A stretch of DNA of 64,000 nucleotides from a virus (IMGVR_UViG_2654587674_000003), one strand, 5' to 3'. Positions 4,169-28,095 are shown, counted from the first letter of the stretch. A program made the numbers and translations. Notes: a model not told the origin generated them from the sequence alone.

Positions 4169-7100
4169 TTAATCCTCAAGCAGAGCATCCAGCGACTGGT
4201 CATTAATAGTTGTGCTCGCACGTGGTCGCGGCTGCGGCTGCGATGTTTTGACAACATTATCCGGATCGCCTTTTGTATTGTTCTTGTTCACATTCAGCAG
4301 ATCGTTCAGGATAGAGCAGATGTTATCCAGCGCCTTCAACATAGCAGGATCGTTATTTATAGTGTCAGTAGTTAATGGTTGTCTTATTCCGCTTCGTGCG
4401 AGATCGGTTACAGTAGGGAGTTGTGGCGGCATAGCAAGAAAAGGTTCTTGCACAGCTGAAGCAGAGCCAAATATGGCGTTATTGGCACCAGTTGCTATTC
4501 CCCTAATGCTATTAGCGGTTTGTTGAATCCCCCCATTCAGCCAGTCTCCAACATTTCTTGTTAATGGGCTAATAGCTCGCGCAATCGCACTATTCTGCCC
4601 AGTAGACTGCATTACAAGATCGTTCAATATCCCTGTACTATCAATCCCCCCAACAAGTCGTGAAAGGTTATCGCCAACGGCAGGAATTACTGCGGTTCCT
4701 GCCTGTTTAAGCCCTGACACCGTGGAATCAAATAGCGAACCAAAGAAGCTCTTATCCTCACCTGTAACCACCTTGTAGCCGTTGTCATAAATCTGCACAT
4801 CACTTGGTGCCGTGATAGTTCGTTTTCCAGAGGTAACTACTGGCGCAGCTCCCGACATAGCCTGGTTGATTGCTAGAGCCTGCTCCTGCTGTGGGGGTTT
4901 CGGTGCTGGCGCTGCAGACGAAAAGCCCGCCATAGCCTGGTTGATTGCTAGAGCCTGCTCCTGCTGTGGGGTTTTCGGTGCTGGCGCTGCAGATGAAAAG
5001 CCCGCCATAGCCTGACTGATTGCTAGAGCCTGCTCCTGCTGTGGGGATTTCGGTGCTGGCGCTGCAGACGAAAAGCCCGCCATAGCCTGGTTGATTGCTA
5101 GAGCCTGCTCCTGCTGTGGGGTTTTCGGTGCTGGCGCTGCAGACGAAAAGCCCGCCATAGCCTGACTGATTGCTAGAGCCTGCTCCTGCTGTGGGGTTTT
5201 CGGTGCTGGCGCTGCAGACGAAAAGCCCGCCATAGCCTGGCTGATTGCTAGAGCCTGCTCCTGCTGTGGAGTTTTCGGAGTAGAAGGGGATACTTGATCT
5301 CCCGGAAGTAGATCAATGATTTCTGTATCGTGATTAACAGTGCGTTTTTGTTGTATGGCTGTTGCGATATCAGCCACTTGAGAAGCTTTTTTAAATCCAA
5401 AAGATTTACCGGTTAAGCCGGATATCTTTTCAGTAAGAGCCTGATCCATTCCTTTCGCTTTTTCGGAAAGCGAAGATATAGAACCAAACGAAGTAGCCGA
5501 CGCAAAATCCTTTACCAGGTCCAGACTTGTTCCAGCAAGGCTGGTAGCCGCGCCGCCAAATAAATTACTTGCACCACTGATTCCGCTTTCATTTATTGCG
5601 ATTAACCGCTCAAGCAAACTCGATGGAGAGCCGGTATTAACATCAGCGTTCTCTGGATTAATCGGTTGTGGTTGGTTACCTTTTTTTTGTGGCTTTTTGG
5701 CGGCCTGGGCATGTTGTGCAACTTCAATTGGCTTAGGTGTTGCTGTTGGAACTGCATTCAATACAGGTTGTGCTGGAGATGTACCATCAGCATATTTCAC
5801 CTTGCGACCAACGCTATATTGCGAATCACGAGCAATTAGTTGACCGCCATTCTCTTGCTGAATTTTATTAAGCCGCGCCAATGTTTCATCGGAGAACCGC
5901 CCTTCCCAACGACCAGTATTTGCGTTGAATGCCCCAAGAGCATTCTTTATGAACTCATTGTTAACCGCCGGGTTTCCACCTTCTTTCGTCGCTATTGCAC
6001 GAACTAATTGCGTCATAACCTCTGGGTTGCTGACGTCTATTTTTTCATTAGGCGAGACGCCAAGATATTTACTGACGTTATCAATATATTGATTGGTATT
6101 GTTCTCATTTGGCGGCGCCCATTTGGAAATGATGCTTGATACCGTCTGTAACTTCTGATGTCCTGCTGCGGCACTGGTGCCGTTGTAATAGCTTGACACT
6201 TGGTTTGCCAACGCCCTGATCCCTTCTTCAGGCGTGTTGAATCGAGCAAAACGCTGTTCACCTTTTGCATTCGGTGCTTCCAGCGTCGCCCCTTCCTGAT
6301 TGGCGAAAACAAGGTTCCCGAGATTATTATTCCGATAATTGCGGTTTTTAGCGTTGCTGCCACCAATATTCAGATCCGCAGCAATGGTGTTACTGGTAGG
6401 CGCATTAAATTCAGCCGGGGAAGTATACCCGTGCTCACCAACACCATCTTCACCATCACGCCCGCCTTGTAGCTGTCGGCCCAGGTTATTAATTGCGGTT
6501 ACCGTTTGCTTGGTGCCATCTTCAACGGCTTTCTTAACCTGCGCAGTGCCTTCGCTGCTTGATGAGAACGATTCTTTTAGGCTGCTGAATACGGTTTTTG
6601 TCGTGTCTATAGAACTATTTATGTCACGAGCAATATCTCCAGTGTCAAAATTCTGAAGTTTTTCACCTGCCCCTTCAAAGCCTAACGCAGAAATCCCTTT
6701 GCCTATTAGGTTGGTTGCACCCGACACTAAGCCGCCCATATCAAGCACATTAGCTGCTGCATAAGCGGTTTTTTGCTGTGTGGATACAGCATTATCATCA
6801 CTTAAGCCAAAGGCTGCCTTTTGTGCCTCTGTATCAGTGTAACCGTCTATAGCATCGTATCCTGCCATAGCGATATTGCCGATAATTGGGATTCCTCTGA
6901 CGCCAGCCCTTACGGCTGCACCACCGGCAGCTTTTAATGCGATTTTTCCAGCCTCTTTCTTTGCGAGATTCTCCCCTGTTGCGATAGCTACTTTCTCGGT
7001 AGTTGCTTCAGTTGCAGCTTTGGCTATACCGGTACTAGCCGTTTTTCTGGCCCCTTTATCTGCAACTTTCTCCGTCGTTTTTGAAGCATCACCAATAGCC

Positions 7101-9442: not shown

Positions 9443-9537
9443 GAGTATTTTTATAAACCTTTTTCCATTTTTAATCCTTTTTAGATCCTTTTTAGGCGTC
9501 GCTGGAGCCAGTAGTGGCGCGGGCTGTAGAGGAGGCT

Positions 9538-9656
9538 GGTGTAAGATTTGCCCTCAATTAAATACGGTCGGTGTAAGATTTGCCCTCAGAAGGTGTAAGA
9601 TTTGCCCTCAAAAGGTGTAGTAATTGCCCTCAAAGTGATGTAAAAATTGCCCTCAC
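9538..9656 (+). repeat. Five direct iterons (about 22-bp period) upstream of repA; origin / incC-like
   Basis: GGTGTAAGATTTGCCCTCA x3, then GGTGTAGTAATTGCCCTCA and GTGATGTAAAAATTGCCCTCA at about 9538, 9570, 9592, 9614, 9636. Confidence 0.85.
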
Positions 9657-9679
9657 CATTTGAAGGATCACACAGGGTT

Positions 9680-10435
9680 ATGAACAGAGCGGAATTAACA
9701 GCAAAAGCCGTCAGCCTGATTGAGTCAGCGACACCTATTAGTCGTAGTTTGGCACAAGCCAATGAGATCACGGAGGCTGCTTATCACCTGACTCGCGACC
9801 AAAAGCGACTGTTGTTTATTGTGGTGGGAAGACTTCGCTATGCTTCTAAGGATGGCGTTCTTGGTTCAGGTGCCTGTGAGTTGACGGTCAACGAATATGC
9901 AGAGATGTATAATTTGCCCTCTGCTGAAGCCAGCAAGGATATTCGTAAGGCCATTTCAGGTCTTAGCGAGAAGAAAGTTACGATATATAACCCTGATGAA
10001 TCGACCGAATCAGAAGACAGTTATGAGTCTTATCCCTGGATGATTAAGGATGCCTATTCACCACGTCGCGGGACTTACATTATTCATCTTAATCCATATC
10101 TCATGCCGTTTTTTACTCTGCTTGATAAGAGATTCACAAGGCTGAATTTTACCGAAGTATCTCGCCTTACAAATCCTTATTCTATGCGGCTTTATGAGTC
10201 CTTATGCCAGTACAGGAAGGATGATGGAAGCGGCTTTGCCATACTTGGCGTCGAATGGATGCGGGAGCGTTATGGGTTACCAAAAAGCTATCAGCGGTAT
10301 GCCGAATTTAAGAGAAGTTTTTTAACGAAGGCTGTAGCAGAGATTGAAAAAAATACAAAAATGAAAATAGTCTTCTCAGAGGTGACGGAAGGCGGCAAAG
10401 TTACCAGGATAAAATTTACCTATCAGCAGTCTTAA
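9680..10435 (+). CDS. repA: Iteron-binding replication initiator RepA
   Basis: ORF flanked by iteron arrays; ATG at 9680 preferred over the TTG at 9647 that lies inside the last iteron. Confidence 0.75.
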   Translation: MNRAELTAKAVSLIESATPISRSLAQANEITEAAYHLTRDQKRLLFIVVGRLRYASKDGVLGSGACELTVNEYAEMYNLPSAEASKDIRKAISGLSEKKVTIYNPDESTESEDSYESYPWMIKDAYSPRRGTYIIHLNPYLMPFFTLLDKRFTRLNFTEVSRLTNPYSMRLYESLCQYRKDDGSGFAILGVEWMRERYGLPKSYQRYAEFKRSFLTKAVAEIEKNTKMKIVFSEVTEGGKVTRIKFTYQQS

Positions 10436-10765
10436 GGGCAATTTTTACACCCCTCTCAAGGTGTAGAATTTGCCCTTAACGATCGGCAATTGAGGGCAAT
10501 TTTTACATCTTAATTGCATGTATCTTGTTATTAGCAAGTTGTGTTTTTATATAACGTATTGATATGTAAGGACTATGTAAAAATCGCCCTCAACCAATAT
10601 CGTGCGTATCGTGCATTCTTATTGCGCTTTTTTATTATCATTCACTGTGTTAACTGATTGATATTATTGAAATGTGTAAAGAATGCCTTCATTACAGATG
10701 AATTGATGATGTAAAAAATGCCCTCAAAATTGCGCTACCTTCCCTACCCGCTATCGTTGAGGGCG
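10435..10765. repeat. Second iteron cluster downstream of repA, both orientations (incA-like copy-control)
   Basis: At least six copies of GTGTA(A/G)AAATTGCCCT(C/T)A-like elements near 10435, 10460, 10491, 10576, 10674, 10708. Confidence 0.7.
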
Positions 10766-17913: not shown

Positions 17914-18040
17914 GGTTAAGCCCTAAATTCGGGCGCGGCGTGAAGGTTCTTTTGACGGGCTAACAATACCTACTTTGTGATTTAGTCAATAGGTTTAGTA
18001 AAATAAAATATATTAACACGCATATTGTTATGTGATTTAA

Positions 18041-19624: not shown

Positions 19625-20431
19625 CTATGATTCCTTTTTGGTGTTCTTTTGGAGCGCATCGATAACGCCTTGTGGCATGATTAAACTGATTGCCGGACTC
19701 ATTACTGCATCATCCAGTAGAGAACCAGTTAACGTGATGGCGACAGCGTTCTCTAAACCTTTGGTTGCCTGAGTGGTTGACGTTTTAATGCGACCTGTAA
19801 GGGCTACGACACCCTCACTTGCTGAGTTAATTTCGGAGAGTAAAACTTCGGCGGCTGTCACTGCTTCCCGTAAAGCATCAATTTCATCCTGAGTAATGAC
19901 TGGAGCCTGAGCGCCCCCAGCACCACCCTGTCCACCATTGCTTTCACCACCACCAGCACTTCCGGCAGCTTCAATTTTTGCGTTAATGGCGTTCATGGCG
20001 GTTTTCAGAGCATCAAGTTTTAGCGCCGTCAATGCGTCCGTTAGAGATTGCGGAATGGAAACATTCCCCATTCCCTCAACAAGGGCGAAAGCAGGTATGG
20101 GGGTCAGCTCGTTACCTTTTGCGTAGCATTCCCAGCCAATCTTCATCTGTAACAACTCTGATGGCTTGGTGTATGGGGAAAGAGAATCAGCCAGTAATGA
20201 AGACGCTTTGCTGGCCTCATTGAGCTGTTCAGAAAAGCCAAGCAATTGAGTAGTCCAGGCCGAAACAGAATCAGGATAGGTTTTATCGGCGTGAACTATT
20301 CCCTGTATGGCGCTGGCGAGCGATGAGGCTTTTACAGAAGCTGCCCGGCTTATGGTTATAGATTCTGGTGTAGAGATACCGGCATCTGACAGAATTTTGA
20401 AGGCTTTAACTTCACCTATTGAATCAAGCAT
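19625..20431 (-). CDS. Helical hypothetical protein with Gly-rich linker (268 aa)
   Basis: ATG overlaps the stop of the upstream gene by 1 nt (TAATG). Confidence 0.45.
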   Translation of the reverse strand: MLDSIGEVKAFKILSDAGISTPESITISRAASVKASSLASAIQGIVHADKTYPDSVSAWTTQLLGFSEQLNEASKASSLLADSLSPYTKPSELLQMKIGWECYAKGNELTPIPAFALVEGMGNVSIPQSLTDALTALKLDALKTAMNAINAKIEAAGSAGGGESNGGQGGAGGAQAPVITQDEIDALREAVTAAEVLLSEINSASEGVVALTGRIKTSTTQATKGLENAVAITLTGSLLDDAVMSPAISLIMPQGVIDALQKNTKKES

Positions 20432-20715
20432 TATGCAACCTGAAAAATATCCTCGCCGTTGGCGATAACAGAACCACAAGAAAGCGGATCGCCTACACAG
20501 ACAACTCCCTTTCCACCTATCGAAAACCATACTCGCGTCGATACAACTGCCCCTGGATGTGCACTGTTACCGTCAGTGTGACTGGGAAACATGGCACCAT
20601 CTACAACAACTGGCTTACCGTTAACGGTGAACCAGGGAACAGTTTCAGCTACCAGTCGCGGCGGAAATCCTCCGTGACCAGAGCAAAGGGTGTCGCTGGT
20701 GGCTATTGCGCTCAT
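20431..20715 (-). CDS. PAAR-like small protein (94 aa)
   Basis: Strong RBS AGGAGGTG; CSGHGG...VNGKPVVVDG...IGGKGVVCVGDP...CG pattern resembles PAAR repeats. Confidence 0.4.
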   Translation of the reverse strand: MSAIATSDTLCSGHGGFPPRLVAETVPWFTVNGKPVVVDGAMFPSHTDGNSAHPGAVVSTRVWFSIGGKGVVCVGDPLSCGSVIANGEDIFQVA

Positions 20716-20794
20716 TCTTCACCTCCTGGTTATCCTCCTATTGTCATCACTTTGTTATTTCGTCATTCAAACTGAGAGTTAAATTTCGGAATAT

Positions 20795-20960
20795 TTTTGT
20801 ATTCTCAATTCATTCTCAAATAAATCTCACTGTCAGACCATCATTCATTGGGTGATTAAGATATTCTCAAAATGAACTCAATAAGCGCTCTTTTTATCTC
20901 GTTTGGTGTGGACTTTTGGGTGCTTCTCTTTTAAAATTACATTTTGATTCTCAAATGTGT
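20795..20960 (+). promoter_or_regulatory. parC-like centromere/promoter repeats upstream of parM
   Basis: ATTCTCAA(A/T) repeated at about 20801, 20812, 20863, 20947. Confidence 0.5.
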
Positions 20961-20980
20961 CTCAGAAGTGGAGCAAGAAG

Positions 20981-21937
20981 ATGCGCATTTTTATCGATGA
21001 TGGTTCAACCAATATCAAAATGCTGTGGGAGCACGATGGGGAAACTTGCACTCACATCAGCCCTAACAGCTTTAAGCGCGGATGGTCAGCAACATTTGGT
21101 GCTGGCAAGCCGTTTAACTATGTCATTGACGACGAAAAGTATTCGTATGATTTGATCTCGCCAGATGTTCTGCCGACGAATAACGTGGAATGGCAATACA
21201 GCCCGCTTAACGTCCTGGCTGTTCACCATGCCCTGCTGACAAGTGGCATTGAGCCGCAGGAAGTAGAAATTGTGGTCACGCTGCCTCTGGCGGAGTTTTA
21301 CGACGACGACGCGCAATACAATCTCGATAACATCGAGCGCAAGAAAGCCAGTCTTATGCGCCCCGTCACGCTGAATAAAGGCAATGTGTTCACGATTAAG
21401 AAAGTTACGGTACGACCGGAGTCTATTCCGGCAGGAATTGGCCTGTGCGACAATCTGAACCCTGCCCATTCTGTTCTTATCGTCGATTTGGGTGGAACTA
21501 CCCTTGATGTTTCAATGGTCGCTGGGCAAATGACGGCAGTTTCCCGTGTTTTTGGCGATTCGAATCTTGGTGTATCACTGGTCACCAGGGAAGTAAGGCA
21601 AGCACTTGCAAGGGCCAATACCGAAACGTCAAATTACAATGTTGATCAGCTCATTATTAACCGCCACGATGAAGATTATCTGAACGACAATATCAATGAC
21701 CCATCAGCGATTGGTGATGTGAAAAAGGCCATTGCCGCAAGCATTGACCGTCTGCGTACCCGCGTTCTTGATGTGATTGGCGACTTTAAAGGATATACGC
21801 ATGTCATGGTGATCGGTGGTGGCGCACCGCTGGTGGCAGATGCAATTCGCGAGCAAGTTAATATTCGTGATGACCGTTTCTTCGTGGCGGATGACCCGCA
21901 ACTTGCTCTTGTTCATGGCCTGAAAGCAATCGGTTAA
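20981..21937 (+). CDS. parM: Actin-like segregation ATPase ParM/StbA family
   Basis: Actin-fold motifs DDGSTN, DLGGTTLD, VIGGGA; RBS upstream of ATG 20981. Confidence 0.75.
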   Translation: MRIFIDDGSTNIKMLWEHDGETCTHISPNSFKRGWSATFGAGKPFNYVIDDEKYSYDLISPDVLPTNNVEWQYSPLNVLAVHHALLTSGIEPQEVEIVVTLPLAEFYDDDAQYNLDNIERKKASLMRPVTLNKGNVFTIKKVTVRPESIPAGIGLCDNLNPAHSVLIVDLGGTTLDVSMVAGQMTAVSRVFGDSNLGVSLVTREVRQALARANTETSNYNVDQLIINRHDEDYLNDNINDPSAIGDVKKAIAASIDRLRTRVLDVIGDFKGYTHVMVIGGGAPLVADAIREQVNIRDDRFFVADDPQLALVHGLKAIG

Positions 21938-21944
21938 CGAGGTA

Positions 21945-22289
21945 ATGTCCATGTCTCAGGAACGTAAGAAAGTGATGATTTATCTTCGCCCAGAGGCTTA
22001 TGCCAATGAAAAGGCGGCGAGCGAGAAGATAAAAAAACATAGCGATATGGCAAGAACCGCATTGTTGGCAGGGCTTGCGCTGGGAGAAGTCGATAGCAGG
22101 CTTCCAGGATTACTGGCTTCCCTGCTGACCGAAGACAATAACCCGGAGCTGATCCGAAAAATGCTGGCATCCTTCCTGGAACTACCAGCTGCGGTTGAGG
22201 AGCGCCCTGCCTCCATTGAGCCAGTGAAGGAGCAAGTTGTTGCCAAAAGCGCGTCGGCGCGCAATCTGGCTGACTCTCTACCTGATTGA
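21945..22289 (+). CDS. parR: ParR-like centromere-binding adaptor
   Basis: Follows parM; segment ALLAGLALGEVDSRLPGLLASLLTED resembles R1 ParR as I recall it. Confidence 0.6.
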   Translation: MSMSQERKKVMIYLRPEAYANEKAASEKIKKHSDMARTALLAGLALGEVDSRLPGLLASLLTEDNNPELIRKMLASFLELPAAVEERPASIEPVKEQVVAKSASARNLADSLPD

Positions 22290-22307
22290 CAGAAGATGTG
22301 CTGGTTT

Positions 22308-22332
22308 AAGGCTGCAAATTGCAGCCTTTTTT
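22308..22332 (+). terminator. Rho-independent terminator after parR
   Basis: AAGGCTGC-AAATT-GCAGCCTT followed by TTTTTT. Confidence 0.7.
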
Positions 22333-22576
22333 GTGCCTTAATGGTGTCTAATTAGTGTTGAACTGGCACCAGTTAGGTGCTGTTATGGTGCAATTTTGTA
22401 TCTGGTTCCAATTTAGGGCTGATTTCGTGTTAAATAGGATGCAATATAAGGTGTATTTGGTCTGATTGATGTTATACTTTGCCAAACATTCATGACTCCA
22501 TTATAGAGCCTGTCCCGCATCAAAAAGGCTCTTATCTGGAACCGTTTTGATACCAAAATCACACCGAGGAACGGAT

Positions 22577-23218
22577 ATGATTATATTGGTAGTCAGCCAA
22601 AAAGGTGGCTGTGGAAAATCAACCACAAGCGTAAACATCTGTGCGGAGCTTGCCCGCGCAAATAAGGATGTAGTGTTACTAGATGCAGACAAGCAAGGAA
22701 CAGCTGCCCGCTGGGCAGCTGACCGTAACACGGCAGAGGTTTCTCCTGTAATTCATTGTGTCCAGAAGTTTGGTAATATTCGAGAAACACTTCTCGATCT
22801 GGATAAGCGTTATGAATTTGTTGTTGTTGATACAGCCGGGCGCGATAGCAAAGAGATGCGTACAGGCATAACCGCTGCAGATATTGTGTTGGTCCCATTC
22901 AGACCATCTCAACCAGATTTAGACACGCTGGCACACTTTGTTGAAGTGTTTGAAGAGGCTTTGGACCTGATGCCTAATCCTAGCATTAAGGCGTTCGCAG
23001 TCTTAACAATGGCCCCATCCAATCCGGTTGTGAATGAAACCAATGAGGCCAAAGAGTACCTGGCTGAATATCCGCAACTGAAGTTGCTGAAAACCATCAT
23101 TCGTGATCGTAAGGTTTACCGCGATTGCATGGCTGAAGGGAAGGGCGTTGTTGAGATGGACAACGGGAAAGCTAAAGGTGAAATCCAGATGTTGGTTAAG
23201 GAGTTATTAAGTGATTAA
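22577..23218 (+). CDS. parA: Small ParA-type partition ATPase (type Ib, ParF-like)
   Basis: Deviant Walker A KGGCGKST; ATG 22577 with GAGGAA RBS. Confidence 0.8.
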   Translation: MIILVVSQKGGCGKSTTSVNICAELARANKDVVLLDADKQGTAARWAADRNTAEVSPVIHCVQKFGNIRETLLDLDKRYEFVVVDTAGRDSKEMRTGITAADIVLVPFRPSQPDLDTLAHFVEVFEEALDLMPNPSIKAFAVLTMAPSNPVVNETNEAKEYLAEYPQLKLLKTIIRDRKVYRDCMAEGKGVVEMDNGKAKGEIQMLVKELLSD

Positions 23219-23498
23219 GCCTCGTAAATCGGTAAAAGCCCCCGAAGTAAAAGACCCCGATCTTGAACGCCGAATTGAGGATTTTGCAAGTAAGGCTGAT
23301 TTGGTGCCGGGTGAGCAACCAGAAGACAACAAAGTGCTCGATAAGGACGCTCCACGTGATTTTAAATCTATTCGTGTTGGTTTCAATGAATACGAGTACC
23401 AGGTACTTGATGCGTTGAGCAAAAAGCATAATCGCAGCAAATTGAATATGATCCGCCATGCTATCCTCATGTTAGCGGAGTCTGAGGAAGCAAAATAA
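23211..23498 (+). CDS. ParG-like ribbon-helix-helix centromere-binding protein
   Basis: 95 aa, overlaps parA end; C-terminal RHH-like segment. Confidence 0.6.
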   Translation: MIKPRKSVKAPEVKDPDLERRIEDFASKADLVPGEQPEDNKVLDKDAPRDFKSIRVGFNEYEYQVLDALSKKHNRSKLNMIRHAILMLAESEEAK

Positions 23499-23539
23499 AG
23501 TCTTTCAGGTTTGTTTTAGAACTTAAAAAGTCTTGAACC

Positions 23540-23577
23540 AAAGGTGCACCAATACACCACTAATTTGGTGCACCTTT
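23540..23577. promoter_or_regulatory. Two palindromic GGTGCACC octamers 24 bp apart (candidate partition site or regulator site)
   Basis: AAAGGTGCACC ... GGTGCACCTTT perfect inverted repeat downstream of parG. Confidence 0.4.
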
Positions 23578-23766
23578 ACATCCTTTTTGGTTCCAATTGT
23601 GTACCATTTATCATTAATTTACTTATGCGCAAAAGTGGGCTTCATGAAAAAGCTCATTATTGAAATAACGATAGAAAGTAATTTCTAATCAACTAGTGGT
23701 TGTCAGCCTATTCGGCTTATAAGATCATACGCTGTTATACGTTGTTTACGCTTTGAGGAATCCACA

Positions 23767-25428
23767 ATGAGTGAGGCAGAAGCCCGCCCGACTAACTTTA
23801 TTCGTCAGATCATCGATGAAGATCTGGCCAGTGGTAAGCACACCACAGTACATACCCGTTTCCCGCCGGAACCGAATGGCTATCTGCATATTGGTCATGC
23901 GAAATCTATCTGCCTGAACTTCGGGATCGCCCAGGACTATAAAGGCCAGTGCAACCTGCGTTTCGACGACACTAACCCGGTAAAAGAAGATATCGAGTAC
24001 GTCGAGTCGATTAAAAACGACGTTGAATGGTTAGGTTTTCACTGGTCTGGCGACATCCGTTACTCCTCCGATTATTTTGACAAACTCCATGCCTATGCTG
24101 TTGAACTGATCAACAAAGGCCTGGCGTATGTTGACGAACTGACGCCAGAACAGATCCGCGAATACCGCGGCACCCTGACGCAGCCGGGTAAAAACAGCCC
24201 GTACCGCGACCGCAGCGTTGAAGAGAACCTGGCGCTGTTCGAAAAAATGCGTGCCGGTGGTTTTGAAGAAGGTAAAGCCTGCCTGCGTGCGAAAATCGAC
24301 ATGGCTTCGCCGTTTATCGTGATGCGCGACCCGGTGCTGTACCGTATTAAGTTTGCTGAACACCACCAGACTGGCAACAAGTGGTGCATCTACCCGATGT
24401 ACGACTTCACCCACTGCATCAGCGATGCGCTGGAAGGTATTACGCACTCTCTGTGTACGCTTGAGTTCCAGGACAACCGTCGTCTGTATGACTGGGTACT
24501 GGACAACATCACCATTCCTGTTCACCCGCGCCAGTACGAATTCTCGCGCCTGAATCTGGAATACACCGTGATGTCCAAGCGTAAGCTGAACCTGCTGGTG
24601 ACCGACAAGCACGTTGAAGGCTGGGATGACCCGCGTATGCCGACCATTTCCGGTCTGCGTCGTCGTGGTTACACTGCGGCTTCTATTCGTGAGTTCTGCA
24701 AACGCATCGGCGTGACCAAGCAGGACAACACCATTGAGATGGCGTCGCTGGAATCCTGCATTCGTGAAGATCTCAACGAAAACGCCCCGCGCGCAATGGC
24801 GGTTATCGATCCGGTGAAACTGGTCATCGAAAACTATCAGGGCGAAGGCGAAATGGTCACCATGCCGAACCATCCAAACAAACCGGAAATGGGTAGCCGT
24901 CAGGTGCCGTTTAGCGGTGAGATTTGGATCGACCGCGCCGATTTCCGAGAAGAAGCTAACAAGCAGTACAAACGTCTGGTGCTGGGTAAAGAAGTGCGTC
25001 TGCGTAATGCTTACGTCATTAAGGCTGAACGCGTGGAGAAAGATGCCGAAGGTAATATCACCACCATCTTCTGTACTTATGACGCCGACACCTTAAGCAA
25101 AGATCCGGCAGATGGTCGTAAAGTGAAAGGCGTTATTCACTGGGTGAGCGCGGCACATGCGCTGCCGGTTGAAATCCGCCTGTACGATCGTCTGTTCAAC
25201 GTGCCGAACCCAGGTGCTGCGGATGATTTCCTGTCGGTGATTAACCCGGAATCGCTGGTGATCAAACAAGGCTTTGCTGAACCGTCGCTGAAAGAAGCGG
25301 TAGCGGGTAAAGCATTCCAGTTTGAGCGTGAAGGTTATTTCTGCCTCGACAGCCGCCATTCTACGGCGGAAAAACCGGTATTTAACCGCACCGTTGGACT
25401 GCGTGATACCTGGGCGAAGTTAGGTTAA
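23767..25428 (+). CDS. glnS: Glutaminyl-tRNA synthetase
   Basis: 553 aa; HIGH motif ([12 protein letters not shown]), VMSKR; near-identical to enterobacterial GlnRS as I recall it; own promoter region and terminator. Confidence 0.95.
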
Positions 25429-25452: not shown

Positions 25453-25479
25453 TAAACGCCGCTACTGCGGCGTTTTTTA
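25453..25479. terminator. Bidirectional terminator between convergent glnS and dmt
   Basis: AACGCCGC-TACT-GCGGCGTT plus TTTTTT; T-rich on the opposite strand as well. Confidence 0.75.
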
Positions 25480-28095
25480 CTTCATTATTGCAATTATATC
25501 GTTAGCAACTACACGTGTTGACGCCTTGCAGGAAACCGACCGTCTGGCTGCCATATGATGTACTTTAAACCCGTTTCCTTCATATAGTTCACGGATGTTT
25601 GGTGCACCACTATTTGTAATCACTACCTTAGCGCCGCGCTGGTGGGCTTCCACCAATAGAGATACCAGCCGTTTCTGTTCGTCGAAACGGAAGCTATTTC
25701 CTGAATAACTGGTAAACCCTTCTGTATCCGGCAGCGGTTCATACGGCGGATCGCAAAAAATCACATCGCCTTCACCAGCCGCCTCGATGACGCCAGCAAA
25801 GTCACCTGATACAAAGGACGTGTTTTTGAGTACGTCATCAGCCAAAAATGCCTCCATCTCTGCATGTGGGAAGTAGGGCGCTTTGTATTTGCCATACCCC
25901 ACGTTGAACTCGCCATTTTGGTTGTACCGCGTTACGCCATTAAAACAGTGCCGATTAAGGTACAAAAAGGCGGCAGCATGATGTAGCTGGTCATACTTTC
26001 CTCTGTTAAATGCCTCACGCACTTCGAGGTAAGCGTCAGCGTTGTTGTAATTTTGGAAAAAACTATATGACAGCGTGACGAGCGAATGTCCTTCTCGCTG
26101 CAATGTCTGATAGAAGTTAATCAGGTCACCGTTAATATCATTAAGCAGGTTGTGGCGAAATCCTGCATTCGTAAATACAGAACCGCCACCAACGAACGGT
26201 TCTATTAACCGCTTGCCGTGTGGTAGATGCTCAAGCACTGTAGGCAACTCTGAGAATTTACCGCCTACCCATTTGAAGATCGGACGCTCATATTCATCCG
26301 GAGTCCGGAGTTTTCTTGTGTAGGTAATGGTATTTATTGTTTTTGGCTGTTTAGCTTCCACAGTCGCAAGAATGCGACACCCAATCCATTGCATAACAGG
26401 AACTGCCATGCTGTTGCCAATCGCTTTGTAACGCGGCCCGTCAGCAGCGAGCATCGCGGCCTCTTCTTCGCTTAAATCTGGATAGTGATTGCGAAGGTAT
26501 GCCAGTTCATCTGAGGAAATTGTTTTACGCTTTTCCGTCGGGATCAACGTATGCCCATCAGGAAAACCTTGCAGCCTTTCACATTCGATAGGGGTAAGAC
26601 GGCGAACACTCATCATATGAGGTAAGTAACCATTATCACCTAATTCGCCTTTTTCAATACTTTTCTGCCCCCCAAAAGATAACGCAACGGCGTCAGCTGT
26701 AGCGCGGGAATCAAGAGTGAAACTTATCTCTTTTTGCCACCCTTTACCCTGCGGTCCAGCATCATCTTTTCGCCCAATTTGTGCATGTTGTAGCGAATAC
26801 GCAACAGCTGGTGGGCATCCTGCATTTGGATTGCTATTAACAGTATTACCAGATCGTAAAGTCGGAGAACATTCAATAGAAACATCTTGTCCATAATCTT
26901 TGCAGGAAAAAGCTACGACTGCATTTTCTTGACCATGGTTACGACCAATAGTATGTGCCAATTCACAATTAACATCAGGATCTTGTGTTCCATGAATAGC
27001 CATCACTGCCAGATGTTCGTGACTTTCTTGTGCTCTGGCACGAAGAGTGCCTGCACCTTCACGCCAAATACCAGCACCAGTACTACTGAAAACTGCTAAA
27101 TCGGTTGCATCTTTAAAATCTCTGGCCTTGACAGTAGAAGCAGTCTCATCATCAGCATATTCGCCAAATGCAACCATTCGATAAGCACCAACAAGCCCAC
27201 TTCCGCGCTGCGCAAAAATCTCCTGGTTACTTGCGCCGATCCCGCCAGTATTGTGTGACTGGTTAAGTGTCGGGTGCGGATTTACAGGGTTATCCCAATG
27301 GCTCCCGCTTTTAATGCCATTTCCAACATTTCCGGCAACTTCCTTCCCCTCGCCTCTGCTCGGCGCAATATTCCGGCGCACGCCTTCGAACTCAAAAAGT
27401 ACCGTTGCGGGATCGAGGTCTGTTCGAGCACTTGCGACAACAAACACGCGTCGGCGTCGTTGTGCCACTCCGAAGTATTGGGCATCAAGGATTCTCCAGG
27501 CCACCTTTCGCTGCGGTCCATAAATACAACCACACTGCGGCCACTTTGGAGCATGGCAACCGGTTTTGCCATCCCACCGCCAGAACGCGTTACTTTTTCC
27601 TGATTCAGGTCGATCACCTGGTTCAAATGGCGCATCTTCTCCAGCCAATCCGGCAAGGAAACATCCGAAGGCGTTATCTGCCGATGACAGGACTCCTGGG
27701 ACATTTTCCCAGACGATAACTGTCGGTTTGAGGAAGGACTCAGACCGTTTGTCGTCAATTGCATTTGCAAGCTCCACATACTTCAAAGTTAGCGCGCCGC
27801 GTTCATCATCAAGCCCACCACGTAAGCCCGCGATACTGAATGCCTGACAAGGCGTACCCCCGACGAGCACATCAGGGGATTCGATTTCCCCAGCCAGGAC
27901 TTTTTTGGCAAGTTTTGTCATGTCGCCAAGGTTGGCGACATGGGGCCAGCGGTGCGCAAGAACGGCAGATGGAAAAGGCTCGATTTCAGCAAACCACGCC
28001 GGACGCATACCCAACGGTTCCCAGGCAATGCTCGCTGCTTCAATTCCACTGCAAACTGAACCATATCTAAGGTTAACGTTCTGCTTCACCACCAA
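25477..28095 (-). CDS. dmt: Bifunctional DNA methyltransferase: N-terminal C5-cytosine MTase domain + C-terminal Dam-like N6-adenine MTase domain
   Basis: 872 aa; [12 protein letters not shown] and ENV motifs N-terminal; FVGGGS and DPPY motifs C-terminal; TTG/GTG start with GGAGG. Confidence 0.8.

Follow-up and report, generated by a model that had tools for sequence, protein, structure and literature searches.

A probable tandem double partition locus, type II beside type Ib, in a D6-like plasmid prophage

Introduction

Positions 20,795 to 23,766 of a 64,000-nucleotide stretch of viral DNA (IMGVR_UViG_2654587674_000003; the whole stretch is hereafter called the window) carry four genes on the plus strand: parM, parR, parA, and an open reading frame (ORF) for a protein of 95 amino acids (aa). 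The first two and the last two form separate cassettes, each with its own repeats and its own predicted promoter, and a terminator lies between them. Analysis of these genes, of their non-coding surroundings and of related loci leads us to the view that the region, part of a plasmid prophage of the D6-like, P1-related kind, is most probably a tandem double partition locus, in which each cassette would contribute to stabilizing the plasmid.

Window positions 20700-23760 show 100% identity to the Escherichia coli plasmid pKY1497_2 (NZ_AP019805, 93.5 kb). Identity to Escherichia phage D6 (MF356679), a myovirus related to P1 that lysogenizes as a plasmid, is 98.2%. The region is matched by 123 PLSDB plasmids from Escherichia, Salmonella, Shigella and Klebsiella, 104 of them over at least 80% of its length. 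Part of the gene content was already known: the GenBank record of D6 labels D6_58 as 'StbA type', D6_59 as 'StbB type' and D6_60 as 'possible ParA partitioning function', followed by D6_61 as 'hypothetical' (the 95-aa ORF) and D6_62 as GlnS. The double type of locus is likewise familiar from plasmid pB171. Three points are new here: D6 orf61 is assigned as the predicted ribbon-helix-helix (RHH) partner of ParA and placed in an unannotated family, candidate arrays of centromere/operator sites are proposed for each cassette, and evidence is given that the two cassettes have been exchanged independently of each other.

Results

Organization of the locus

The features of the locus are listed in Table 1. 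A preliminary description of this DNA had proposed two mechanistically different partition systems side by side, a type II set of the ParMR-parC kind and a type Ib set, within 300 bp of each other. The gene positions and protein families proved to be as it had placed them, and the distance from the end of parR to the start of parA is 287 bp. The full annotation of the identical plasmid pKY1497_2 holds no partition genes beyond these par genes and places a RepB initiator about 10 kb from the par locus. A type Ia ParABS system is not what is found: the ParA has only 213 aa, and the annotation of the whole plasmid pKY1497_2 contains no ParB-like gene, no large ParA bearing an N-terminal helix-turn-helix (HTH) and no HTH-ParB. 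A scan of the par region against Rfam returned no credible match.

Table 1. Features of the two partition cassettes in the window
Feature	Position(s)	Strand	Basis or remark
Cassette 1, parC-like centromere/operator	20796-20964	+	same-strand (T)TCTCA repeats
(T)TCTCA repeats	20802, 20813, 20824, 20864, 20875 (ACTCA), 20948, 20959	+	
Weaker TCTCA-type copies	20896 (ATCTC), 20922 (TTCTCT)	+	
Putative parMR promoter (TGGACT, 17-nt spacer, TAAAAT)	20909-20937	+	consensus scan, 9/12 matches; inside the repeat array
parM (stbA-type), actin-like segregation ATPase, 318 aa	20981-21937	+	Pfam and PDB matches
parR (stbB-type), adaptor/centromere-binding protein, 112 aa, N-terminal RHH	21951-22289	+	Pfam and PDB matches
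Intrinsic terminator closing the parMR operon	22308-22336	+	9-bp stem with 5 GC pairs, then TTTTTT
Cassette 2, upstream centromere/operator-like array	22340-22570	+	GGYRY sites on either side of the extended -10
Upstream GGYRY sites (centers)	GGTGT 22345, GGCACC 22367, GGTGC 22378, GGTGC 22389		phased at 11 or 22 bp
Further upstream sites	GGTGT 22452, ATACC 22552, ACACC 22563		
Extended -10 promoter TGTTATACT	22470-22478	+	TGnTATACT conserved in all alleles
parA, small type Ib ParA, 213 aa	22577-23218	+	deviant Walker A (KGGCGKST, residues 9-16), no N-terminal HTH
95-aa protein (D6 orf61), predicted centromere-binding protein	23211-23498	+	RHH family, ParA linkage
Downstream array with hairpin	23535-23607	+	GAACCAA, inverted repeat, TTGGTTCC, GTACCAT
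Perfect 13-nt inverted repeat AAAGGTGCACCAA/TTGGTGCACCTTT	23540-23552 and 23565-23577		

The type II cassette

ParM matches the Pfam models StbA_N (1e-68) and ParM C-terminal (3.5e-55), aligns over its full length with the R1 ParM structure 1mwk (E = 2.6e-110) and retains intact nucleotide-binding motifs in its translation (DDGSTNIK, DLGGTTLD and GGGA), as a type II ATPase does. The start was taken as 20981, since a GTG at 20957 merely lengthens the ORF. Outside the D6 group the best match is a protein of a Proteus plasmid (70% identity), where parMR occurs alone, followed at 54% identity by F-type plasmid proteins annotated as ParM/StbA. ParM homologues of about 47% identity were also seen in 31-40 kb phages of the P88/Xuanwuvirus group (P88, 520873, PhiR44_2, Xuanwuvirus P884B11 and others), which are presumably integrating P2-like phages.

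The parR gene begins 14 nt past the parM stop codon. Its product matches Pfam Plasmid_stab_B (PF10784; 3.5e-11) and, over residues 3-74, PDB entry 2jd3 (E = 1.6e-6), in keeping with the adaptor of a type II system. The terminator behind it is kept in all relatives aligned.

Repeats upstream of parM had been described beforehand as parC-like copies of ATTCTCAA, and four copies are indeed present, starting at 20801, 20812, 20863 and 20947. Over the 64-kb window this 8-mer occurs 7 times against 3.3 expected, so that its clustering rather than its overall count is striking, and the more informative unit is the shorter core TCTCA. Six TCTCA lie on one strand within 180 bp (20803-20960) where 0.11 are expected, and the next-best 180-bp window on either strand holds two. 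Most neighboring repeats are spaced by 11 bp. When the region is aligned with D6 and with diverged relatives from E. coli, E. fergusonii and S. dysenteriae, the (T)TCTCA cores are invariant and the spacers between them have diverged, which is the pattern expected for protein-binding iterons flanking and overlapping a promoter, and the repeats may well be of this kind. The -10 block TTTTAAAAT of the putative parMR promoter is invariant in five relatives and probably serves the operon. Phased short repeats upstream of parM that enclose a candidate promoter correspond to the layout of a type II parC.

ParA and the 95-aa protein of the second cassette

The ParA of the second cassette aligns with the NCBIfam model ParA_partition from end to end (8.5e-48, positions 1-203 of 203, 162.6 bits), and its best relative of solved structure is ParF of TP228 (4dzz; E = 1e-18). 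With its length, its deviant Walker A motif and the lack of an N-terminal HTH, it has the features of type Ib ParA proteins, which are about 200-230 aa long.

The ORF for the 95-aa protein overlaps parA by 8 nt and starts with GTG. Its product has a basic N-terminus (MIKPRK). A helix follows at residues 16-29, and the C-terminal part is an RHH with a strand at about 52-58 and helices at 60-73 and 77-94. It matches phrog_9169 and gives a weak Arc-like hit in addition. A word-indexed search with this protein retrieved close relatives only, and an exhaustive HMMER search was needed for the distant ones. The latter yielded a family of 123 cluster representatives of about 85-100 aa, all of which are named 'hypothetical protein' in the databases. 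The family consensus comprises a basic N-terminus (M-x-K-R-R), a helix (IExFAxxAD) and a C-terminal part reading FKxIRVPFNEYEY..L...A.K.GRSKLN.IR.AI. About 30% of the family members (18-19 of 65) match Pfam RHH families (RHH_1, NikA-like, DUF6290). An AlphaFold model (AF2) from a deep alignment, used in place of one from a shallow alignment with a predicted local distance difference test (pLDDT) score of 59.7, reached a pLDDT of 83, with values above 87 for residues 41-90, and consists there of a short strand followed by two helices. Foldseek matches to this model are almost exclusively RHH proteins, namely CopA, CopG (target-normalized template modeling score of about 0.8), ParG (1p94), ParD, Arc and NikA.

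We regard genomic linkage with ParA as the strongest functional evidence for this protein, as far as sequences allow. Using a 12-sequence family alignment, 15 distant loci were found in Sodalis, Serratia, Rahnella, Chimaeribacter, Kushneria, Hahella, Thiodiazotropha, Entotheonella and others. In all 15, a homologue of orf95 immediately follows a small ParA with 57-70% identity to that of the window, and in none of them does ParM or ParR occur within 3 kb of the pair. The overlap with parA, the structure model, the family and the linkage together indicate a small protein of RHH fold right downstream of parA, as in a type Ib system, and the 95-aa protein is likely the centromere-binding partner of ParA. 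It would then bind DNA, select the repeats and stimulate the ATPase. The term ParG-like, used in the preliminary description, is appropriate with regard to fold and role but not to family membership: the ParG Pfam model (PF09274) does not match the 95-aa protein of the window and is not among the families matched by the 65 relatives.

Candidate sites around the second cassette

The motif GGYRY (GGTGC, GGTAC, GGCAC) came from reading the intergenic regions of diverged D6-like alleles, in which it recurs at 11-bp intervals on both sides of the extended -10 and is found once more behind the small ORF. For sites phased at 11 bp, the upstream array of the window is the best 120-bp stretch of all 64 kb, with 7 phased pairs against 4 in the next best. 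The latter, at 9511, corresponds to the RepB iterons and was set aside as unrelated. Several of the distant loci (Hahella, Kushneria, Serratia and the metagenome-assembled genome COS4) have repeats of the GGTACCAA/GCACCAA type with an 11-bp period on both sides of parA-orf95, a motif which can be written GGTAC/GCACCAA. Such an arrangement, with repeats on both sides of the pair, would be that of a type Ib system having two-sided centromere sites.

The cassette had been described as flanked by palindromic GGTGCACC pairs. This applies downstream of the 95-aa ORF, where the only two exact copies (23543 and 23567) form the arms of the 13-nt inverted repeat, but upstream of parA only degenerate sites are present. 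The folding energy of the segment 23540-23577 as RNA is -24.8 kcal/mol (z = -4.9). In the E. fergusonii allele (L003, 8824-8862) the arms differ at four positions, and three compensatory pairs and one G-U pair keep the hairpin; in two further plasmids (L030 and L031) a C-to-T exchange in one arm again gives a G-U pair. The changes in E. fergusonii suggest that a stem-loop, in RNA or DNA, is under selection besides, or instead of, protein sites. As the hairpin is kept by pairing changes, the GGTGCACC pair may at least in part be a 3' stem-loop or terminator of the operon. At the same time, the hairpin sits in a run of ACC-containing sites, with ACC starts at 23537 and 23548 spaced by 11 bp, and phased motif arrays are found 3' of the parA-orf95 operon in relatives as well. 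This run resembles the downstream centromere array of other alleles, and computationally the two roles appear inseparable. We thus read 23535-23607 as a candidate parC2-like second centromere and/or a 3' stem-loop of the operon.

Conservation and exchange of the cassettes

Every D6-like plasmid inspected has both cassettes in this order, and so does the most diverged of them, which comes from E. marmotae. Ratios of nonsynonymous to synonymous substitution rates (dN/dS) among relatives, at synonymous divergences (dS) up to about 1, were 0.02-0.03 for parM, 0.07-0.10 for parR, 0.03 for parA and 0.07 for orf95, values that indicate purifying selection on all four genes. Two D6-like records, L024 (NZ_CP031917) and L025 (CP042632), have parA split by a frameshift. 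They were considered as natural knock-outs of cassette 2 and set aside as probable assembly errors: because L025 is sparsely annotated (57 features in 95 kb) and parM is shortened too in L024, the frameshift is probably a sequencing error.

The two cassettes differ in their patterns of similarity to the window. In plasmid L030, ParM and ParR are 99.7% and 99.1% identical to those of the window and ParA and the 95-aa protein 84.9% and 74.7%, while in L033 the values are 93.7% and 57.9% for ParM and ParR and 99.5% and 96.8% for ParA and the 95-aa protein. Megablast similarity to D6-like plasmids with diverged alleles stops at about 22351, just past the parMR terminator. As these comparisons show, the two cassettes recombine independently among D6-like plasmids and have separate histories. 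In each cassette, the DNA-binding partner is far more diverged than the nucleoside triphosphatase. It is the centromere-binding protein together with its centromere that determines partition incompatibility, and the faster divergence of the DNA-binding partners fits such a role. Redundancy against incompatibility had been suggested as a possible reason for carrying two systems, and the independent exchange of the cassettes is compatible with this idea.

Neighboring genes and replication origin

Directly upstream of the par locus lies a gene for a PAAR-motif protein (20431-20715, minus strand; Pfam 2.1e-06), a homologue of P1 upfC, whose product is presumably a spike-tip protein of the contractile tail. 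Downstream, the coding sequence of glnS extends from 23767 to 25428, about 270 bp from cassette 2; in complete E. coli genomes, plasmid-borne glnS was found at 81 plasmid places. It is followed at 25477-28095 on the minus strand by a single ORF of 872 aa which fuses a C5-cytosine methylase and a D12-class N6-adenine methylase domain. The D6 record annotates two much shorter ORFs (D6_63 and D6_64) in this region, and its place is taken in other relatives by a different, smaller gene, so that the region adjoining the par locus is variable. The repB gene occupies 9680-10435. Five tandem 22-bp iterons (GGTGTAAGATTTGCCCTCA) precede it at 9538-9658, and further copies are located inside or downstream of it (9904-9925, 10460-10481 and 10708-10729), an arrangement resembling oriR and incA.

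Discussion

Comparison with known partition systems

The closest precedent for the arrangement is the double par locus of pB171. This plasmid reportedly carries par1, a type II parMR system, and par2, a type Ib parAB system with the sites parC1 and parC2. As a proxy for this type we used L005, an IncFIA/FII plasmid, whose ParR is identical at 129 of 130 positions to PDB entry 2jd3, which we take to be ParR of pB171 (the file itself says 'StbB protein'). Like the pB171 type, the window has a type II and a type Ib system adjoining on one replicon, and a small centromere-binding protein with a C-terminal RHH (91 aa in L005, 95 aa predicted in the window). L005 is also repeat-rich between the operons and downstream of parB, and the cores of the ParR sites are alike, with ATACTCAAT in L005 and ATTCTCAAT in the window. 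The proteins are distant, however, with identities between the window and L005 of 43% for ParM, 32% for ParR and 43% for ParA, and the 95-aa protein has no detectable homology to the pB171-type ParB, so that orthology does not extend to all four proteins. The layout differs as well: in L005 the operons are divergent (parR<-parM<- / ->parA->RHH parB), whereas those of the window stand in tandem, both on the plus strand and with a terminator between them, rather than around a shared parC1. The replicon hosting the locus of the window is, in addition, a phage-plasmid. Since closer relatives of each cassette occur singly, the juxtaposition seems independent of the pB171 lineage, and the D6 locus would work like the pB171 double locus while standing outside that lineage.

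Each cassette also has its own well-studied counterpart. Cassette 1 resembles R1 parMRC and F-type stbAB in its actin-like ParM, its ParR/StbB adaptor and the phased short repeats around the promoter. R1 parC consists of ten 11-bp iterons, while the candidate array of the window is built on the core TCTCA with about 7-9 copies in three clusters. Cassette 2 is similar to TP228 parFGH, as ParF is the nearest solved ParA and the partner is a small protein whose N-terminal tail is basic and flexible and whose C-terminal part is an RHH, and as the repeats are predicted to double as operator. Unlike in TP228, the partner in the window has neither a ParG match in Pfam nor significant sequence similarity, and the candidate motif, GGTRC, recurs every 11 bp in arrays on both sides of the operon; TP228 parH contains tetramer boxes. 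In P1 and P7, finally, parABS of type Ia does the same job in a related myovirus plasmid prophage, in place of which D6-like elements carry a type II and a type Ib system.

Carrying both systems was initially taken to be unusual. Apart from the classic precedent of pB171, this view does not hold in the light of the survey of McPhillips et al. 2026 (PMC13245405), in which about 19% of the par-bearing plasmids in PLSDB have multiple partition systems and the combination of a type I system having an RHH-ParB with type II occurs in 971 PLSDB accessions. R27 and the Shigella plasmid pINV are cited there as further studied cases of double par.

Proposed mode of action

In the model that we propose, the prophage would replicate from the RepB/iteron origin and be segregated by both cassettes. 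In cassette 1, ParR dimers would bind cooperatively, through their N-terminal RHH, to the phased TCTCA repeats across the parM promoter. The ParR-bound parC would repress the parMR operon and form the complex that caps ParM-ATP filaments, which would push sister plasmids apart. In cassette 2, the 95-aa RHH protein would bind GGTRC-type repeats that are spaced by one helical turn and flank the operon on either side; because the upstream set brackets the extended -10, we propose that it also autoregulates. Its basic N-terminal tail would stimulate the ATPase of ParA bound to the nucleoid, and a diffusion-ratchet mechanism could lead to evenly spaced plasmids.

Several observations weigh against this interpretation. 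The 162.6 bits of ParA fall just below the ParA_partition cut-off of 180. The 95-aa protein itself has no match in Pfam, RHH families included; sequence and profile searches against PDB gave nothing significant (E values of at least 0.07), nor did the comparison with the pB171-type ParB (E = 0.035, and a probability of 0.4 in hhalign). None of the Foldseek matches of its model is significant (E >= 1), as is to be expected for a domain of 40 residues. With respect to the sites, the GGYRY motif was defined after viewing the sequences, and its shuffle statistics are therefore optimistic. A position weight matrix built from the flanks of the distant loci shrank to no more than the palindrome TGGTACCAA, and the flanks in the window were not singled out by it, which shows how loose the site model still is. 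A further, unbiased test with 6-mers enriched at the distant loci placed the flanks joint first and third among all 150-bp windows, with few and partly overlapping hits; the tied stretch, at 17981, is an AT-rich promoter region. The allele of cassette 2 in the window and in D6 has fewer sites than other alleles, and the downstream palindrome pair may mainly be an RNA hairpin or terminator.

Alternative explanations

Cassette 2 could alternatively be a regulatory or copy-control pair, with the 95-aa protein as a CopG-like repressor and the ParA-like ATPase in some other role. The D6-like plasmid pYU39_89 was annotated with 'cop', and 'cop, parA, stbB and parM' are listed together in PMC6799933, where parA, stbB and parM of D6-like elements appear as 'a partition system'. 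The RHH fold is common to the CopG and Arc repressors, and the sites of cassette 2 bracket the promoter of their own operon, although for this very reason repression is to be expected under either reading. What makes a copy-control pair very unlikely in our view is the conservation of the small deviant-Walker-A ParA and its partner as a unit at all 15 distant loci, the occurrence of repeats also downstream of the operon and away from any promoter, the presence of repB with its unrelated 22-bp iterons about 10 kb away, and the fact that the nearest characterized relatives of this ParA, ParF and the pB171-type ParA, are partition ATPases. Alternatively, only one cassette might be working, the other being a dispensable or decaying passenger. 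Such a state would agree with SCP1, R27 and pINV, where one of the two systems often dominates under laboratory conditions (PMC13245405), with the frameshifted parA of L024 and L025, and with the smaller number of repeats in cassette 2 of the window and D6. Against decay stand the low dN/dS of all four genes, the retention of both cassettes in all D6-like plasmids examined including that from E. marmotae, and the conserved repeat arrays and promoters of both cassettes, while L024 and L025 resemble low-quality assemblies. We therefore consider a passenger unlikely and a double partition locus with two maintained cassettes the better explanation.

As for the origin of the locus, it had been speculated that a cointegration event brought cassette 2 together with glnS, which lies close behind it. 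This scenario did not withstand comparison with relatives and is extremely unlikely. The plasmid glnS has about 96% nucleotide identity to the chromosomal gene of E. coli only from about 23680/23699 to about 25424 of the window; this match begins 70-90 bp upstream of the ATG and stops just short of the stop codon, and cassette 2 has no close counterpart on E. coli chromosomes. Four otherwise syntenic D6-like plasmids (L002, L004, L028 and L033) retain both cassettes and lack glnS, and the recombination boundary among relatives lies between the cassettes rather than around cassette 2 and glnS. The chromosomal identity and the absence from relatives with both cassettes mark glnS as a separately captured host gene.

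The tandem locus itself appears to be a composite, and the closest ParA-orf95 pairs occur without a parMR partner cassette. In L029 (NZ_CP115618), a more distant P1/D6-like plasmid of Citrobacter freundii, the corresponding slot, bounded by the PAAR gene upfC and by dmt (5479-6510), holds only a type Ib-like pair and no ParMR. One gene of this pair encodes a small ParA with 31% identity, wrongly annotated as peptidyl-arginine deiminase; the other encodes a 92-aa 'stability/partitioning determinant', whose comparison with the 95-aa protein in hhalign was non-significant. The RepB gene of L029 directly adjoins this slot. With this one outgroup, the comparison suggests that upfC-dmt is a partition slot in which the two modules were joined in the D6 lineage. 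We thus view the cassettes as independent modules, which are neither a single inherited unit of the pB171 type nor tied to the capture of glnS.

Implications

A more far-reaching idea, which we put forward as a speculation and consider rather doubtful at present, is that the double locus acts as an evolutionary buffer: with two mechanistically independent systems, the centromere-binding protein and centromere of either one could be swapped or diversified without the prophage ever becoming unstable. Under the same idea, the 95-aa protein would be the founder of a separate, unannotated family of RHH proteins that bind centromeres, with a conserved GGTAC-type site phased at 11 bp, and this family would be widespread in Gammaproteobacteria. 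If true, the buffer would let the prophage evade incompatibility at the level of partition with D6-like or F-type plasmids in the same cell. It would also account for the variation of ParR (58-99% identity) and the 95-aa protein (75-97%), which is far greater than that of ParM and ParA and independent between the two, among phage-plasmids that are otherwise similar.

The current understanding of plasmid segregation is left unchanged by these findings. Their relevance lies with the D6-like phage-plasmids, which are common in E. coli, Salmonella and Shigella. The use of type II plus type Ib instead of the type Ia system of P1 would explain part of their compatibility with P1-like prophages, and the locus offers concrete targets for curing or incompatibility typing. 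The assignment of the 95-aa protein as a likely centromere-binding protein fills an annotation gap for a family of at least 123 clusters at 50% identity. The independent exchange of alleles, finally, provides a small natural data set on the evolution of partition specificity.

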